A stretch of DNA of 58,946 nt, the filler included. It is 5 parts of 5 records of this genome, joined end to end, with 100 filler letters (N's around TTAATTAATTAA, not from the genome) between each part and the next. Parts side by side here need not be neighbours in the genome. Positions count along the whole stretch, not along the records: positions 25,118 to 39,109 come from SRR31156797_9830; 4 more parts are not named here. One strand, given 5' to 3'. Shown in pieces: positions 18,840 to 43,374 of the stretch. How positions within the stretch are numbered: position 1 is the first letter of the stretch; the number at the start of each line of letters is the position of its first letter. The notes under the pieces were generated by a model, which was not told the DNA's origin, did not search any database, and saw only the letters and a program-made list of their open reading frames with translations. The position numbers and the translations under genes are program-made.

Positions 18840-19862
18840 TTATAAAATTTCAAGTTTTACCAAATCCTGAACATCCAACATACCTGCAGGCTTACCATTA
18901 CTTGTAGCAATAATATTGTCCACTTGTTTTTCTTTAAAAATGCCAACTGCAGTATGTAGCTTTTCGTCAATATCAACATTGATAGGCATTTTCATTTCAA
19001 AATCACTCATTTTCATGGTAAGGATTTTCTCACCATCAATATTCATATGACGACGTAAATCGCCATCAGTAAAGATACCTACAAGATTTCCTTCAGCATC
19101 AACAACAGAAACTGCACCAGTGGCATATTTAGTCATTTCAACAGTAGCATCAGTTACCAAAGCATCTAATCCGATAGTTGGATTTTTACTTCCAATAACC
19201 TCACCTACTTTCATTGTCATCTGACGTGTATGATTCACAAACTGCTGTGTACCTATTTCTGTAAAGTTATTGTTATTTAGGTTTTTCATAATACCCCAAG
19301 GAATAGTGATATTCTGACAACCCAACTCAATCGCATTTTTGATATGTTCAGGATGACGAACAGAAGAGAACATGATTTTAGTATTGTAGTTATACTTGTT
19401 CACTAAATCAACACAATCCTTCACTAATTTTAAAGCATCGTATCCCTGATCTTGCATACGACCAACCAACACACAAACATAAGTTGCTCCTGCAGCCATA
19501 GCCATGTATGCTTGCTGAATATTGTACACCAAGTGAATATTCACCATCATATCCTCGTCGCGAAGCATTTTACATGCTTTTGCCGCTACTAAGGAAGCTG
19601 GAATTTTAAATACAGTTTTTTTCTTATCTAAACCTAAGCTTAATAAACGTTTTGCCTCAGCTACAATTTCTTCCGCTGTATCTCCCAGCGCTTCAATCAT
19701 TAAAACAGGCACTTTTTTAGATAGCTCAACAATTGCTCCGTCGATATCTGTTATGCCATGTCTGTGCATAAAAGTAGGCGTGGTTGTTAATCCATCTATA
19801 AAACCTAGTTCAAATGCTTCTTCAATTTCTTTTATGTCAGCAGAATCAAGATATAATTCCAT
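18840..19862 (-). CDS. Transaldolase/fructose-6-P aldolase family domain fused to a CBS pair
   Basis: MELYLDSAD, GLTTTP, Schiff-base VFKIP, VGRMQD, SSVR; C-terminal ~120 aa has GIFTDGDLRR and GMLDVQDLVK (KdsD-type CBS pair). Confidence 0.85.
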   Translation of the reverse strand: MELYLDSADIKEIEEAFELGFIDGLTTTPTFMHRHGITDIDGAIVELSKKVPVLMIEALGDTAEEIVAEAKRLLSLGLDKKKTVFKIPASLVAAKACKMLRDEDMMVNIHLVYNIQQAYMAMAAGATYVCVLVGRMQDQGYDALKLVKDCVDLVNKYNYNTKIMFSSVRHPEHIKNAIELGCQNITIPWGIMKNLNNNNFTEIGTQQFVNHTRQMTMKVGEVIGSKNPTIGLDALVTDATVEMTKYATGAVSVVDAEGNLVGIFTDGDLRRHMNIDGEKILTMKMSDFEMKMPINVDIDEKLHTAVGIFKEKQVDNIIATSNGKPAGMLDVQDLVKLEIL

Positions 19863-33701: not shown

Positions 33702-34235
33702 ATGCAGGTCAACACCAATGACATTTCACGAAGAATCAATGATGAACAAGTGGTCATGGTACATACCGGCGAATTATATACCGGTGATCAGAATATTGTA
33801 CTTAAATCCAGCCCCATTGGCTCATGTGTTGTTGTTGTACTTTTTGATTATGAATCACTTGCCGGGGCAATGGCCCACATCATGCTGCCTGGTTTTGCAC
33901 CTGAAAAGTGCAATATCGTTACTGCAAAATATGCCGGAAATGCCATCGATCTGATAATTAAGCAAATTGTAGATATTGGGGTAAAGCCTGAAAATTTAAA
34001 AGCCGTTATTGTAGGTGGAGGAAATGTGTTAAAAAGGAAAGATGATACCATAGGTGCGCAGAATATAGCCTCAGTTGTTGATTTGCTCCACAAACAGGAT
34101 ATCCCGATATTAGAGAGATCGGTTGGGGGCACAAACAGAAAATCCGTAAGATTCGACATTCAATGGCAAATTATCTATTTTACCGAAGGAGATGCTACCG
34201 AGAAAGTTTTATTAAAAATTGGCCATAAAACCTAA
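33702..34235 (+). CDS. cheD: Chemoreceptor glutamine deamidase CheD
   Basis: IGSCVVVVLFD (catalytic Cys), AHIMLP (His), KYA, KAVIVGGG, IGAQNI, SVGG. Confidence 0.9.
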   Translation: MQVNTNDISRRINDEQVVMVHTGELYTGDQNIVLKSSPIGSCVVVVLFDYESLAGAMAHIMLPGFAPEKCNIVTAKYAGNAIDLIIKQIVDIGVKPENLKAVIVGGGNVLKRKDDTIGAQNIASVVDLLHKQDIPILERSVGGTNRKSVRFDIQWQIIYFTEGDATEKVLLKIGHKT

Positions 34236-34249
34236 CATTGTAAAACCCC

Positions 34250-35614
34250 ATGATGAGCAAAGAAAACAATACTGAACTTGAGCAATTACGCCGGCGGGTT
34301 GCCAAACTGGAAATGCTGGAAAAAAAGCATCTGGTTTTGGAAGATGAATTACGGGCAATCAATCAACAACTGGATGCCGCTAACCAGCAACTACAAGCCA
34401 GCGAACAGCAGTTAAGGGCATCCAATGAACAACTTCAGGCCAGCGAGCAGGAAGTAAAAGCAAAAGAAGCTGCTGCCCGTTCGGCGCGTATATTTGCCGA
34501 AAATATTATTGCTACCATCCGCAATCCCCTGGTGGTGTTGGATGAAAATTTACATGTGGTATCTGCCAGCCGCTTCTTTTATATCACCTTTCAGGTTACC
34601 GAAAAAAACACGATCGGAAAAAAAATATATACACTTGGCAATAAACAATGGGATATTCCGGAATTAAAAGATCTGCTCAGAAAAACCCTACCCCAAAAAT
34701 CCACAGTTGAAGATTTTGAAGTAACCCACAAATTTCAGCATATCGGTGAAAAAACAATGTTGCTGAATGCACGTGAACTTAAACAGGGACAGGGCAGCAA
34801 AAGACTGATTTTGCTTTCCATTGAAGATATCACCCACAGGAAAAAAGCCGAACTGGAAATGCAGCGTTTAAACACCGAATTGCAGCTAAAGGCTGACGAA
34901 TTGCAGCAAATATTATACATCACCACACACGATTTACGATCTCCACTGGTAAATATTCAGGGATTCAATAAAGAGATGGAGGCTTCATTGAAAGATCTGA
35001 AAGAGGTGTTGAACCACGAATCAATACCCCGGGATATAAAAAACAGGTTTTTCCCGATTATCGATGAAGAAATACCGGAAGCCATGTTTTTCATTACTTC
35101 CAGCACAACCAAAATGGATAAGTTGTTGAGCGGTTTGCTGGCATTATCGCGGCTGGGCCGGCAAATGATCAGCCTTCAGAAGCTGGACATGAATGCCCTG
35201 CTTAAAGAGGTGCTGAATACCTATAAATTTGAAATCGCTAAAAACAGTGTAAAAATAGAGTTGTCGGAATTACCACACTGCGATGGAGATGAGATGCAAA
35301 TCAACCAGTTGTTTTCGAATATAATTGGCAACTCTCTCAAATTCCTCGATCCGGAACGACCGGGAAAAATCACAATTTCAGGTCACAAGGAAAATGGAAT
35401 CTCAAAATATATTATAGAGGATAACGGGATTGGCATTTCAAAAAACTATCAAAGCAAAGTATTTGAACTGTTTCAAAAACTCGATCCCAAAAAGCCTGGC
35501 ATTGGGTTGGGAATGAACATTGTAAAACAAATTGTAGAGAAACACAACGGCGATATTCAACTGATATCGGAATTGGGAAAAGGGACAAAATTTATTATTT
35601 TTATCCCGTATTAA
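34250..35614 (+). CDS. Cytoplasmic PAS histidine kinase with an N-terminal Gln-rich heptad coiled coil
   Basis: Heptads NQQLDAA/NQQLQAS/EQQLRAS/NEQLQAS, a PAS of the CheB/CheR-fusion type (WDIPELKDLL), H-box THDLRSPL, DNGIGI. Confidence 0.9.
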   Translation: MMSKENNTELEQLRRRVAKLEMLEKKHLVLEDELRAINQQLDAANQQLQASEQQLRASNEQLQASEQEVKAKEAAARSARIFAENIIATIRNPLVVLDENLHVVSASRFFYITFQVTEKNTIGKKIYTLGNKQWDIPELKDLLRKTLPQKSTVEDFEVTHKFQHIGEKTMLLNARELKQGQGSKRLILLSIEDITHRKKAELEMQRLNTELQLKADELQQILYITTHDLRSPLVNIQGFNKEMEASLKDLKEVLNHESIPRDIKNRFFPIIDEEIPEAMFFITSSTTKMDKLLSGLLALSRLGRQMISLQKLDMNALLKEVLNTYKFEIAKNSVKIELSELPHCDGDEMQINQLFSNIIGNSLKFLDPERPGKITISGHKENGISKYIIEDNGIGISKNYQSKVFELFQKLDPKKPGIGLGMNIVKQIVEKHNGDIQLISELGKGTKFIIFIPY

Positions 35615-35693: not shown

Positions 35694-36134
35694 ATGAAAA
35701 GAGAACTCAAGATCATTCTTGCAGAAGACGATGATGGTCATGCCACACTAATTAAGCGAAATTTAAGGCGATCAGGATTGATGAATGAAATTATCCATTT
35801 AAGAGACGGGCAGGAAGCCCTGGATTTCTTATTTCAGGGTAAGCACGACAAAAATAATCTGAAGGATTTGGCCTCCCTGTTGTTGCTCGATATTAATATG
35901 CCCCGGGTGGACGGTATTGAAGTGCTACAGAAAGTAAAACAAGATGAGTTCCTGAAAAAAATGCCGGTAATTATGATCACTACTACCGACGATCCGCGCG
36001 AAATTGACAAATGTCACGAATTGGGATGCAGCAACTATATTACCAAACCCATCGATTACGAAAAGTTTGTAGAGGCCATTCGAAAACTGGGGCTGTTCCT
36101 GGTGGTGGTTGAAGTCCCCGATATGAATACGTAA
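35694..36134 (+). CDS. Single-domain response regulator
   Basis: ILAEDDDGH, LLLDINMPRVDG, ITTT, YITKP. Confidence 0.92.
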   Translation: MKRELKIILAEDDDGHATLIKRNLRRSGLMNEIIHLRDGQEALDFLFQGKHDKNNLKDLASLLLLDINMPRVDGIEVLQKVKQDEFLKKMPVIMITTTDDPREIDKCHELGCSNYITKPIDYEKFVEAIRKLGLFLVVVEVPDMNT

Positions 36135-39783: not shown

Positions 39784-40041
39784 ATGGAATCTATGGACAC
39801 AAAAATAATTGGTAAACTTGTTAGAAAATCACGAAAGGATCAGGGATTAACCCAGGCAGAAGCTGCCGGGTATCTTAATGTCGGCACCCGTTTCCTGTCT
39901 GATCTTGAAAACGGGAAACCCACGGTCCAATTGGAAAAAGCCCTGCATGTATTGAACGGGCTTGGATTTAAGATCCTTGCGATACCTAAAACAAACGACA
40001 GATTGATCCGCAGGATTGAGGACCATTTGGATGAAGAATAA
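39784..40041 (+). CDS. hipB: HipB/y4mF XRE antitoxin
   Basis: GLTQAEAAGYLNVGTRFLSDLENGKPTVQLEKAL; overlaps hipA. Confidence 0.9.
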   Translation: MESMDTKIIGKLVRKSRKDQGLTQAEAAGYLNVGTRFLSDLENGKPTVQLEKALHVLNGLGFKILAIPKTNDRLIRRIEDHLDEE

Positions 40042-41266
40042 GCTAAATGTTTTTGTTAATCAACTCAAGGCGGGTGAGTTGTGGCTGGATCACCAGCGCC
40101 GTTTTTGTTTTCAGTATGATAAATCCTGGATCAACTCACCGGACAGTCATCGTTTGTCTGTTTCCCTGCCTTTACGGGAAAATCCGTATTTAGCCGATGA
40201 TTCATATTCTTATTTTACCAATCTGCTGCCTGAAGGGGAAATTTTGAATGTCATCGCCAGAAAACTTCAGATCCCTGTGAGCAATCAGTTTGAATTGTTA
40301 AAGGCGGTTGGAGGGGATTGTGCCGGAGCTGTGTCTCTATTTGAAGATGGGGATTTGCCACCAAAGCCCGAAGCGTATTCATATAAAGTCCTTACTGACG
40401 ATCATTTGACAAAAATAATAAAGGAGTTGCCCGAAAACCCGTTTATGGCTGACCAAGAAGGGGTCAGGCTTTCTCTGGCCGGAGCCCAGGAAAAACTACC
40501 TGTTTCTTTAAAAAATAATATGATCCGAATCTCCATGAACGGCGCACCCTCTTCCCATATTTTAAAGACCCCCATAAAAGATCTGCATGGAACGGTTGAA
40601 AACGAGACCTTCTGCATGATGCTGGCCAGAAGAATGGGCCTGGCCGTACCCGATGTTAAAATTTTAAAAGTTAATGACATTCCTTTGTACATCATTGATC
40701 GGTATGACAGAAAAATAGAAAACGGCCAGATCATCAGACTGATCCAGGAGGATTTTTGCCAGGCCTTGAATGTTAATGCCCAGCTAAAATATACCCCGAC
40801 GCTGGACATGTGTTTTTCACTCATCAGAAATGAGAGTGCAGTTCAGATCAAAGATACCAAGCGATTTTTGCAACTTGTCATTTTCAACGGATTAATCGGC
40901 AATTGTGATGCCCACGCAAAAAATGTTTCTTTTATCCATGGAGAAAATGGAACAACCCTGGCACCCTTTTATGATTTATTGTCCACATATGTATATCCCT
41001 ATGCAAAAAAAATGGCCATGAAAATAGGCAAGGGGAGGCATTTTCAGTTTCTTGAGCCCAAACACTTTGAACGGTTTTCTGCGGATACCCAAATAAAATA
41101 CAAAATCGTAAAAGAAACCATTATGACAATGGCAGACCAAATTGTGGAAGAGGCAAAGGCCACGACCCAGGAGTTTTGTGACCTGTATGGGGAAAGTCCT
41201 GTTTTAAACGAAATTAATGATGTAATTAAGAATGCGTCAAAAGAAAAGTTGATAACCTTTAAATAA
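40031..41266 (+). CDS. hipA: HipA kinase toxin, full length
   Basis: N-terminal LSVSLP/NLLPEG/GGDCAGA, SLAGAQEK, QEDFCQA, GNCDAHAKN, LAPFYDL; ATG 40031. Confidence 0.93.
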   Translation: MKNKLNVFVNQLKAGELWLDHQRRFCFQYDKSWINSPDSHRLSVSLPLRENPYLADDSYSYFTNLLPEGEILNVIARKLQIPVSNQFELLKAVGGDCAGAVSLFEDGDLPPKPEAYSYKVLTDDHLTKIIKELPENPFMADQEGVRLSLAGAQEKLPVSLKNNMIRISMNGAPSSHILKTPIKDLHGTVENETFCMMLARRMGLAVPDVKILKVNDIPLYIIDRYDRKIENGQIIRLIQEDFCQALNVNAQLKYTPTLDMCFSLIRNESAVQIKDTKRFLQLVIFNGLIGNCDAHAKNVSFIHGENGTTLAPFYDLLSTYVYPYAKKMAMKIGKGRHFQFLEPKHFERFSADTQIKYKIVKETIMTMADQIVEEAKATTQEFCDLYGESPVLNEINDVIKNASKEKLITFK

Positions 41267-41283
41267 AAATTGAACCCGAGCTG

Positions 41284-43374
41284 ATGAATAAAGAACAAAT
41301 TAAGAAATTGGAAAAAGACTTATGGGCTGCTGCTGATAATCTTAGGGCCAATACAGACTTAAAATCCACTGAATACGCCACCCCGGTACTGGGTTTAATC
41401 TTTTTAAAGTTTGCAGATAATAATTATCGGCAGGCTGAAAAAGCGATCAACAAAGAATTTAACAGACTTTCAGGCACCCGTCGTCAAAAATCGATCTCTG
41501 ATATTGCCATTGAAATATGCGGGTTTTATCTGCCTGACCATTCCCGGTATGAGTATTTGCTTGCCCTGCCGGAAAAAGAGGATGTGGCAAAGAAAATCAA
41601 AGAAGCCATGCTGGATATTGAGAAGTACAAGCCTGAGCTGGAGGGCATATTGCCCAAAGAGGAATATGTTCCGTTGACCCGGACCGACAAAACAATACCG
41701 GCTCAATTGCTAAAAACATTTTCCGATATCCCCAGGGATGCCAGCGGTGATGTATTTGGTAAAATCTATGAGTATTTCCTGGGTAAATTTGCCCTGAGTG
41801 AAGGACAGAAAGGCGGAGAGTTTTTTACCCCGACCTCTGTGGTTCGATTGATGGTTGAGATCATCGAGCCCCATCGTGGCAGTGTGTTTGATCCGGCATG
41901 CGGTTCCGGTGGTATGTTTGTTCAGTCAGCCAAGTTTATTGCAGAACGGCAAAACGGGGGTTCCAAATCAAATAAAAAAGAGGATGATCTCTTTGTATCC
42001 GGTCAGGAAAAGACCCTGGATACGGTAAAGCTGGCCAAGATGAATCTGGCGGTCAATGGGCTGCGCGGTGAGGTCAAACAGGCCAATACATATTCGGAAG
42101 ACCCATTCAAGGCCTTTGGCAAATTTGATTATGTCATGGCCAATCCGCCATTTAATGTGAGTGATGTGCCCATTGCAACGGTGGAAAATGATAAGCGGTT
42201 TAACACCTATGGCCTTCCCCGAAAAAAGACCAAGGTCAAAAAAAGTGAACAGGGTAAAGAAACCGTACCCAATGCCAATTATCTCTGGATTAATCTGTTT
42301 GCCACCTCATTGAAAAAGAAGGGGCGTGCCGCTCTGGTCATGGCGAACTCGGCTTCTGATGCCCGCCACTCAGAAGCGGATATCCGTAAAACCCTGATTG
42401 AAAAAAATCTGATTTACGGGATGCTGACCCTGCCGTCCAATATGTTTTATACGGTGACCCTGCCGGCAACGCTTTGGTTTTTTGATAGAGATAAAAAAGA
42501 TGATAGAATTCTGTTCATCGATGCCCGCAATATATTCACCCAGATTGACCGGGCCCACCGTGAATTCAACGAAGAGCAGGTCCAGAATATTGCCATTATC
42601 AGCAAACTGCACAAAGGCAACCGGATTGCCTTTATTCGTTTGATTGATGGCTATTTTGAACGGGGCATGGCCGGGTTGATTGAAAATAAAAAGCAGGTGG
42701 AACCGGTTTGTGAACAGCTTTTGGAGGTGTTGGATGATGTCCAGGGTAAAACCGCTGTTGCGGATCTGGTTTTGCAGTGGAAAGGGCTAACCAGCCTTAA
42801 AACCCGGTATAAAAAATATCTCAAAACGGAAAATCCCGATCTTAAAGCCGATTCAGACGTTGATTCTCAAAACACGACCCAGCACAAGCTGCGCAAAGCA
42901 TTTGATCCATTCTTTGAAAATTTGCATACCGGTTTAAAACAATTGGATAAAATTGTGCGAAAGCATGAAAAAGAAAAAGCCGAAATTGCAAAGAAAGCCG
43001 GGAAACGAAACACCATAGACAGGGAAACTAAAAAACTCAAAACAGCATTGGAATCCCTGCATAAAGAGGTTAAAAGCGCCGAAAGCTATTATAAACATAT
43101 TCACTGGCTCCAGGAGCGTTTCCCAAAAGCCAAGTATGAAGATGTCACAGGGCTTTGTAAACTCGCTTCGCAAAAAGCCGTTAAAGAGCAGGACTATTCC
43201 CTCAATCCTGGGCGCTATGTCGGCGTGGTCATTGAGGAGGATGGGAAGACTGAGGAAGAGTTTATTGATGAGGTTGCAAAATTAAATACAGAATTTGAAG
43301 AACTCAATATACAAGCAGATAAGCTCTCGAATACAATCAAAAAGAATATCCAGTTGATGGTGAATGGTCTATGA
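41284..43374 (+). CDS. hsdM: Type I R-M methyltransferase
   Basis: LWAAADNLR, GEFFTP, DPACGSGGMF, NPPFN, YSLNPGRYVG. Confidence 0.96.
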   Translation: MNKEQIKKLEKDLWAAADNLRANTDLKSTEYATPVLGLIFLKFADNNYRQAEKAINKEFNRLSGTRRQKSISDIAIEICGFYLPDHSRYEYLLALPEKEDVAKKIKEAMLDIEKYKPELEGILPKEEYVPLTRTDKTIPAQLLKTFSDIPRDASGDVFGKIYEYFLGKFALSEGQKGGEFFTPTSVVRLMVEIIEPHRGSVFDPACGSGGMFVQSAKFIAERQNGGSKSNKKEDDLFVSGQEKTLDTVKLAKMNLAVNGLRGEVKQANTYSEDPFKAFGKFDYVMANPPFNVSDVPIATVENDKRFNTYGLPRKKTKVKKSEQGKETVPNANYLWINLFATSLKKKGRAALVMANSASDARHSEADIRKTLIEKNLIYGMLTLPSNMFYTVTLPATLWFFDRDKKDDRILFIDARNIFTQIDRAHREFNEEQVQNIAIISKLHKGNRIAFIRLIDGYFERGMAGLIENKKQVEPVCEQLLEVLDDVQGKTAVADLVLQWKGLTSLKTRYKKYLKTENPDLKADSDVDSQNTTQHKLRKAFDPFFENLHTGLKQLDKIVRKHEKEKAEIAKKAGKRNTIDRETKKLKTALESLHKEVKSAESYYKHIHWLQERFPKAKYEDVTGLCKLASQKAVKEQDYSLNPGRYVGVVIEEDGKTEEEFIDEVAKLNTEFEELNIQADKLSNTIKKNIQLMVNGL

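Follow-up and report, generated by a model that had tools for sequence, protein, structure and literature searches.

The window analyzed here is a stretch of 58,946 nt made up of five contigs joined by N runs (GC content ~23-42%), and its feature of interest is a cheD gene that lies directly upstream of a gene for a sensor histidine kinase with a glutamine-rich heptad segment. Both genes belong to a contig at 25118-39109 (~14 kb) whose eight large open reading frames (ORFs) are all on the plus strand, in the order 1954-aa multi-PAS histidine kinase, two single receivers, receiver-kinase, cheD, PAS kinase, receiver, and hybrid kinase. The features of the cheD region are as follows.

33702..34235, plus strand: cheD, member of a kinase-linked clade; start at ATG 33702 (177 aa) or, alternatively, at TTG 33696; putative active site Ser36, Cys42 and His59; Pfam PF03975
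34236..34249, plus strand: spacer of 14 bp from the cheD stop to the kinase start; TAA ends at 34235, ATG at 34250
34250..35614, plus strand: sensor histidine kinase of 454 aa, cytoplasmic; a heptad coiled coil followed by PAS, DHp (His227) and HATPase_c (PAS and HATPase_c by Pfam)
34340..34462, plus strand: heptad segment, kinase residues 31-71, the proposed CheD target; six [N/E]-[Q/E]-Q-L-x-A-x units, with the QQ core at 34364-34456
34499..34843, plus strand: PAS domain, kinase residues 84-198 (Pfam); same type as the PAS that follows E-E heptads in CheB-CheR-fused kinases
35285..35608, plus strand: HATPase_c catalytic domain, kinase residues 346-453 (Pfam, 6.8e-22)
35694..36134, plus strand: single-domain response regulator, 146 aa (Pfam Response_reg, 1.2e-20); same position in the related locus L001
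36193..39109, plus strand: hybrid receiver-PAS-histidine kinase (Pfam), truncated by the contig end; fourth gene of a conserved cluster of cheD, histidine kinase, response regulator and histidine kinase

The 14-bp gap implies co-transcription of cheD and the kinase gene. Pfam searches of the eight large ORFs find only PAS, HisKA, HATPase, receiver and CheD domains, with no match to MCPsignal (the signaling domain of methyl-accepting chemotaxis proteins, MCPs), CheA, CheW, CheB or CheR, and the contig carries neither cheC nor a gene for CheR or any other methyltransferase. An earlier note on this DNA had described an intact cheD with GSC and HIMLP motifs, 14 bp upstream of the kinase, on a 14-kb contig lacking MCP, cheA, cheW, cheB and cheR genes, and had given a Q-rich heptad string for kinase residues 31-71 (nt 34340-34462). 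The ORF, the Pfam match and the alignment given below bear out the first of these statements, the sequence itself gives the 14-bp spacing and matches the heptad string exactly, and the Pfam results for the eight large ORFs agree with the stated gene content.

The product of 33702-34235 scores 65.6 bits with Pfam family CheD (PF03975), for which the cut-off is 25 (E 5.2e-18), and phmmer aligns it to the solved CheD of Thermotoga maritima, 2f9z_C, with an E-value of 1.2e-16. With residues counted from the ATG at 33702, its GSC (Cys42) and AHIMLP (His59) fall opposite GSC and AHVMLP in 2f9z_C, and Ser36 opposite the Thr. The catalytic residues of the Thermotoga protein are Cys27 and His44, plus Thr21. 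The window protein nonetheless lies far under all nine cut-offs of the NCBIfam equivalog models for CheD (NF041119, NF010018 and others), the best score being 91.4 bits against a required 240.

Both hallmarks of a two-component histidine kinase, the His box and HATPase_c, are present in the downstream protein; the H-box reads ITTHDLRSPL, and its His227 is invariant in 27 orthologs. (HisKA itself is detected as a domain in the ortholog from L131.) Residues 31-71 read EDELRAI / NQQLDAA / NQQLQAS / EQQLRAS / NEQLQAS / EQEVKA, and a six-frame scan of the whole window for runs of at least three [EQ][EQ][LIVMF]x4 heptads returns this segment alone. Because Ala occupies heptad position 6, each unit presents A-x-x-Q-Q-x-x-A, which fits the modification-site spacing [AS]-x-x-[EQ]-[EQ]-x-x-[AS]. 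This spacing is the CheD recognition consensus on chemoreceptors.

Kinase orthologs 58-77% identical to the window protein come from Prolixibacteraceae (e.g. Tangfeifania, Sunxiuqinia), and all that are full-length retain NQQLDAxNQQLxAxEQQL heptads. In the 27-ortholog alignment, where mean column identity is 70%, Q46, Q47, Q54 and Q61 never vary, and conservation at Q39, Q40 and Q53 is 90% or higher. Since Gln and Glu codons are one transversion apart, Gln retained to this degree is not neutral drift. The gene order is also kept: L001, from the complete chromosome of a metagenome-assembled genome (MAG), G001, has cheD, a QQ-heptad kinase 61% identical to the one in the window, a 146-aa receiver, and a large hybrid kinase (1646 aa), with only 11 bp between cheD and the kinase gene. 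The G001 cluster further includes, 9 kb downstream of cheD, a 1028-aa kinase with ~12 QQL units (L131 ~18880-19600 = G001:C1:350897-351612); the window contig stops short of the equivalent position. In a Tangfeifania MAG, a short contig that bears a fragment of the kinase ortholog also holds a 1120-aa ORF with a long QQ heptad run (NEQQLKASNQQLEAFNQQLISGEQQLQAANQQL..., L002:1080-4439). P0102, a 349-aa protein of Draconibacterium halophilum, was considered as a natural variant without heptads and rejected, as it is a homologue that is short at the C-terminus.

Elsewhere in the window, paired 44-base N runs separate the five contigs, and the pieces may come from more than one organism. The next contig encodes, at 39784-43374, an HTH_3 protein overlapping a HipA-family kinase, likely a toxin-antitoxin pair, and, after these, the type I restriction-modification methylase HsdM.

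A CheD clade and its Gln-coded partner kinases

Comparison of the window CheD with 301 genomes of the order to which G001 belongs finds a CheD match in 99, about a third of these Bacteroidales, and the matches fall into two classes. Eleven genomes have full-length matches at 34-46% identity and E-values of 2.6e-26 or better, and in all the others E-values begin at 1.7e-19. The weaker matches for which loci were retrieved come, with the exception of L105, from clusters of the form cheR-X-cheD-cheB; in these canonical Bacteroidales clusters (L103-L121 except L105) it is the middle gene X, of ~300 aa, that separates cheR and cheD. A quick maximum-likelihood tree parts 18 canonical sequences, all drawn from one order, from 79 clade sequences by branches of 1.19 and 1.16 with SH-aLRT 100. 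L105, which is cut by the contig end, was rejected as a canonical CheD, for the tree puts it in the clade. On sequence comparison, then, the window CheD is a member of a distinct clade, apart from the canonical Bacteroidales type encoded between cheR and cheB.

Relatives of this clade in more distant genomes are found only with a profile. A single-sequence search of genome contigs with CheD gave none, while a profile built from 12 clade CheDs (A1) yields 80 loci spread over about ten phyla, among them Bacteroidota, Planctomycetota, Cloacimonadota, Thermodesulfobacteriota, Acidobacteriota, Chlorobiota, Elusimicrobiota, Spirochaetota and Fidelibacterota. When 1.84 billion library proteins are searched with the clade profile, 253 representative clusters match at E <= 1e-30. 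Cys42 and His59 are retained in 79 of 79 clade members, and position 36 is Ser or Thr in 72 of 79.

The gene beside a clade cheD is, at most loci, one for a protein with Gln-Gln heptads. Such QQ genes were defined by at least three occurrences of QQ[LIVMF], a rule that also covers interrupted runs such as that of L092, and 77 of the 80 loci were tallied, L125, L132 and L172 being left out because an ORF-overlap filter lost the cheD call. A QQ gene is found at position -1, +1 or +2, or fused to cheD, in 67 of the 77. By the same rule, 65 of 139 cheD-adjacent genes qualify, but of 489 genes at a distance of at least three positions just 4 do. Six of the ten loci without a QQ gene have less than 450 bp of downstream sequence, which leaves L123, L167, L173 and L197 as genuine exceptions, and L167 has a QQ kinase two genes upstream. 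Read by eye, two of the excluded loci also have a QQ protein, just upstream of cheD in L125 and just downstream in L172.

A DNA-level search gives the same picture. The pattern QQLxAxxQQLxA occurs in 16 of the 301 genomes of the order (its reversed control in one), among them all eleven with a full-length clade CheD, and in ten of those eleven it lies on the cheD contig, mostly less than 2 kb away. A twelfth clade genome, G188, whose L105 is the locus cut by the contig end, has no pattern match. The contrast of 11/12 clade genomes with 5/289 others has a Fisher p of 1.3e-15, a statistic that ignores shared ancestry.

Domain content identifies the partners as sensor proteins rather than chemoreceptors. 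Sensor domains (PAS, GAF, HAMP or others) are present in 60 of the 61 QQ proteins scanned, in most cases together with HisKA, HisKA_2 or HisKA_3 plus HATPase and often with a receiver; the remaining one is a 258-aa fragment at a locus end with no domain match. None of the 61 matches MCPsignal (PF00015), CheR or CheB, and MCP, cheA, cheW, cheR and cheB genes are likewise absent among the recurrent neighbors of the 77 clade loci, where the only other recurrent genes encode single receivers (12 loci, mostly at +2), further hybrid kinases and NarL-type regulators.

CheD also occurs in the same polypeptide as sensor domains. At L146:9998-12337 a single ORF encodes CheD, PAS and 13 QQ heptads, and ten further proteins have an N-terminal CheD fused to PAS/kinase regions (P0121, P0122, P0127, P0129, P0136, P0142, P0155, P0180, P0205, P0220). 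In several of these the motif [AS]xLNhh[E/Q]DLE is seen, with two or three copies spaced 21 or 42 residues apart in P0127, P0142 and P0220 and one copy in P0129 and P0121; one of its positions alternates among E, Q and R in P0142 and P0220. Among the six fusion proteins scanned for repeats, four have this motif in repeated form. It may be a second CheD target. Certain cheD-associated PAS proteins have no kinase core (L094:1982-2902, L125 upstream of 5483, the C-terminus of L146, P0136, P0180, P0205), and such proteins end in a conserved helix of the form ...(M/F)(V/M)GRE(L/E)x(M/I)xELKxx(V/I)xxL.

The heptad-PAS region of the window kinase has homologues outside the cheD setting, and there the heptads are coded differently. 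Among 80 loci with homologues of this region, cheD is present only in the ortholog locus L001 and in none of the other 79, and 33 of the 80 encode kinases fused to CheB and CheR (Pfam confirms CheB_methylest, CheR_N and CheR in five of five fusions tested). Kinase residues 32-201 are 49-51% identical to CheB-CheR fusions from Chitinophagaceae and Flavobacterium. The 30 fusions that have a run of at least three heptads supply 211 heptads, and Glu occupies the two variable positions in 193 and 196 of them (91-93%). CheD-adjacent proteins supply 535 heptads, with Gln at the same two positions in 496 and 506 (93-95%), and their logo is [N/E]-Q-Q-L-x-A-[A/S/N], with A at 93% and the two Q at 94% and 96%. 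The earlier note had stated that CheB/CheR fusions carry NEELQS heptads before the same PAS type, and had proposed checking whether cheD neighbors QQ-heptad kinases while homologues without cheD have EE. The identity and the Glu content of the fusions agree with its statement, and the check comes out as it predicted, with cheD beside QQ genes in the 67 loci and E-E heptads in the fusions.

Proposed mechanism and competing explanations

We consider it probable that the window cheD serves two-component kinases, not chemoreceptors, and that its target is the Gln-coded heptads of the co-transcribed kinase, which it would change by deamidation. That the link between cheD and the heptads is a functional one is very likely; that deamidation is its mechanism is fairly likely, judging from the sequences compared. 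A study of Bacillus subtilis CheD (PMC3513319) describes CheD as deamidating particular receptor Gln residues at a site that resembles the CheD-binding helix of CheC, and reports that Gln engineered into CheC is itself deamidated; on this basis we propose the Gln-to-Glu conversion on the kinase. CheD, through Cys42 and His59, would hydrolyze exposed heptad Gln side chains to Glu, and the negative charge added along the signaling helix would reset the output of the PAS kinase, which would then signal to the downstream single-domain regulator and hybrid kinase. Since Gln is a neutral mimic of methyl-Glu, the Glu-coded sister cassette fused to CheB and CheR could reach the same two states reversibly, through methylation of Glu. 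We infer catalysis on the kinase, the direction of its effect on activity, and feedback through the regulator. Priming for CheR acting in trans, and a role in adaptation or memory, both suggested in the earlier note, may likewise be part of the picture.

A bolder form of this proposal, which we put forward tentatively and regard as doubtful, is a one-way covalent timer or memory that is independent of methylation. The kinase would be made with all its heptads as Gln and converted by CheD stepwise and irreversibly, such that gain would track the age of the molecule or its signaling history and be reset only by new synthesis, in about ten phyla and without chemoreceptors. It would be the deamidase counterpart to the Glu-coded cassette of the CheB-CheR-fused kinases. 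The regulator may gate CheD. In Bacillus, phosphorylated CheY (CheY~P) gates CheD through CheC.

Several observations count against deamidation of the kinase by CheD. The pairing has exceptions in kind: L197, from Prosthecochloris, has cheD followed by a response regulator and two histidine kinases without QQ heptads, L173 also has none, the heptads of L123, from Tangfeifania, are degenerate with a single Q kept, and in G102 the QQ heptads are on contigs other than the cheD contig. No QQ heptad run is found in any of the ten further CheD-sensor fusions (the P0121 to P0220 set), from which it appears that the clade is tied to sensor kinases generally and that QQ heptads are not its sole context. 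Owing to relatedness among the genomes compared, many of them MAGs, the counts overstate independence. B. subtilis chemotaxis depends more on binding by CheD than on its catalysis (PMC3513319).

That chemoreceptors are not the target is favored by a search of eleven clade-carrier genomes (G001 and G302-G311, several of them MAGs): MCPsignal is matched in five (G001, G303, G305, G307, G310) and unmatched in six (the isolates G302, Prosthecochloris vibrioformis, and G304, Tangfeifania diversioriginum, along with G306, G308, G309 and G311). With many of the genomes being MAGs, "not found" is not absence. (The L197 locus, at L197:9995-15341 in P. vibrioformis DSM 260, a green sulfur bacterium, consists of the clade cheD, a receiver and two PAS/sensor kinases, in a genome with no MCPsignal or CheR match.)

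Co-folding was proposed in the earlier note as a further check. Co-folding of CheD with kinase residues 22-82 gives a median ipSAE of 0.42, above the 0.02 of the best of three controls, with partner pLDDT of at least 74. The runs behind this median scored 0.02, 0.61 and 0.42, no interface was returned, and contact agreement between runs is at least 0%. Of 78 solved complexes 51 attain the mark applied, as do 2 of 108 mismatched pairs, and scores of 0.60 or lower come from only 5 of the 78 solved complexes and from all four passing mismatches. As a solved CheC-CheD complex exists, a pass could also reflect memory of it. The models lend weak support to contact between CheD and the heptads.

It is possible, if unlikely, that deamidation is only a priming step, after which CheR and CheB encoded elsewhere would methylate and demethylate the kinase reversibly. 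CheR is indeed matched in nine of the eleven carriers, and the operons described below, which encode a CheR and a CheB directed at kinases, coexist with the CheD module in three of them (G304, G001, G306), two of which, G304 and G306, have no MCPsignal match; methylation of a sensor kinase also has a precedent in RsbK, which is methylated by RsbM (PMC4574943). Neither enzyme, however, is among the recurrent neighbors of the 77 clade loci or on the window contig, and CheR is unmatched in G302 and in G309, a genome with both cheD and a QQ kinase. If Glu were the sole working state, moreover, one would expect the heptads to be Glu-coded and CheD to be lost, as in the CheB-CheR-fused kinases.

The "orphan" CheR operons just mentioned (L202:2099-9461, L203:2258-9105 and L204:7592-13388, in G304, G001 and G306) encode a hybrid kinase, a second hybrid kinase, CheR and a receiver-less CheB. 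The first kinase has the architecture HAMP-PAS/GAF-HisKA-HATPase-REC with two to three receivers, and carries EELKxTNEEL heptads. These operons resemble the RsbK-RsbM type with an esterase added.

Somewhat less probable still is the explanation that CheD acts mainly by binding the heptads and altering the kinase allosterically, perhaps being released or recruited by the phosphorylated single-domain regulator in the manner of the CheC-CheD-CheY~P loop of B. subtilis. A B. subtilis CheD mutant with normal deamidase activity and poor binding is null-like (PMC3513319), the single receiver is the most recurrent other neighbor of clade cheD (12 loci), and the fusion of CheD to QQ-less sensor kinases in ten proteins fits a regulatory domain. 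Against this stand Cys42 and His59, which are kept in 79 of 79 members and would be superfluous in a pure binding protein. Strict use of Gln across phyla, and not of Glu one transversion away, is also what a deamidase substrate requires; a binding site has no obvious need of it, since CheC binds CheD by a helix that contains Glu (PMC3513319).

An improbable alternative is that CheD acts elsewhere, for example on the response regulator, on the hybrid kinase encoded downstream or on a small molecule, with structural reasons behind the co-variation of the QQ heptads with CheD. The QQ-less CheD-sensor fusions, four of the six scanned having the repeated [AS]xLNhh[E/Q]DLE motif, and the L197 cheD with its regulator and kinases without QQ runs would fit such a target; but each heptad fits the CheD site spacing, the Q/E split follows the partner enzyme precisely, and no other family is as frequent a neighbor of cheD as the QQ kinases. 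It is very improbable that the adjacency is incidental, with CheD serving chemoreceptors encoded beyond the 14-kb contig (where MCP genes are possible, five of the eleven carriers having MCPsignal genes) and the QQ heptads being a mere polar coiled coil, given that no MCPsignal is found in the other six carriers, including the isolates T. diversioriginum and P. vibrioformis, that in G001, G303 and G305 (the MCP-bearing genomes whose CheD copies were located) cheR and an MCP gene have a further cheD, of canonical type, beside them, that 67 of 77 loci across phyla show the pairing versus 4 of 489 background genes, and that CheD-sensor kinase fusion proteins occur.

Significance and comparison with known systems

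Covalent adaptation by methylation, demethylation and deamidation is regarded as a hallmark of chemoreceptor arrays. Two-component kinases are, to our knowledge, usually thought to lack it, the single studied case being RsbK-RsbM. The comparative evidence gathered here is strong, and suggests that chemotaxis-type covalent modification is applied to sensor kinases by way of a CheD clade dedicated to them and a heptad cassette coded with Gln. What emerges appears to be a conserved and phylogenetically broad module, made of a chemotaxis-family deamidase and kinases whose linker carries its substrate code, with a Glu-coded sister served by CheB and CheR. If the proposed action of CheD on the kinase is correct, it would provide tunable or history-dependent gain control for two-component signaling, would account for "orphan" cheD, cheR and cheB genes in bacteria that are non-motile or lack MCPs (and so correct their annotation as chemotaxis genes), and would offer a compact part, heptads plus enzyme, for kinase engineering.

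In the literature searched, which left most subscription journals outside its scope, no report was found that pairs CheD with histidine kinases or has it act on them, nor any on the heptads of CheB-CheR fusions. The paper on HmrABCX (PMC11481889) was set aside as a precedent, since in it cheD is only a transposon hit in a table.

The CheD proteins of chemoreceptor systems (B. subtilis; T. maritima, 2F9Z) share with the window protein the Pfam CheD family, the Cys of GSC and the His of AH(I/V)MLP. The kinase segment is in turn like the methylation helices of MCPs, being a heptad helix with paired Q/E flanked by small residues, where Gln stands for methyl-Glu. The differences lie in the setting and in the extent of the code. 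The partner of the clade CheD is a PAS histidine kinase (MCPsignal in 0 of 61), its contig in the window has no che cluster, it forms a separate clade on a long branch, and its carrier genomes are often without a detected MCP domain; and nearly all heptads of the kinase are Gln-coded, versus few sites per chemoreceptor.

The CheB-CheR-fused PAS kinases have the same heptad plus PAS cassette as the window kinase, in the register [N/K/S]-E-E-L-x-[S/T]-x as compared with [N/E]-Q-Q-L-x-A-x, and in both arrangements enzymes of chemotaxis type are tied to a kinase and not to a receptor. In the fusions, the cassette is Glu-coded and the methylesterase and methyltransferase are supplied in cis. In the window, the cassette is Gln-coded, the kinase (454 aa) has no CheB_methylest or CheR domain, and the deamidase is encoded by a separate gene. 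We know of no biochemical study of the fused kinases, and the literature searched gave none.

The signaling helix, or S-helix, is a coiled coil of ~40 residues that acts as a switch between modules of sensor kinases (abstract of PMC1592074). The window heptads are a coiled-coil segment of like length, also between sensor kinase modules. The S-helix, however, is defined by a conserved motif of its own, and the abstract makes no link to Gln-Gln heptads or to CheD.

The nearest experimental precedent is RsbK-RsbM. In Bacillus cereus, RsbK is a hybrid sensor kinase whose signaling helix is methylated by RsbM, encoded in the same operon, and this methylation controls output (PMC4574943). The proposed pair is similar in that the helical linker of a sensor kinase would be modified by a dedicated enzyme from the same operon. 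RsbM is presumably an enzyme of CheR type. The modification in RsbK-RsbM is methylation, with no paired esterase, while the window pair would use deamidation by CheD; and RsbK has its helix between GAF and the core of the kinase, while the heptads of the window kinase are N-terminal to its PAS domain.

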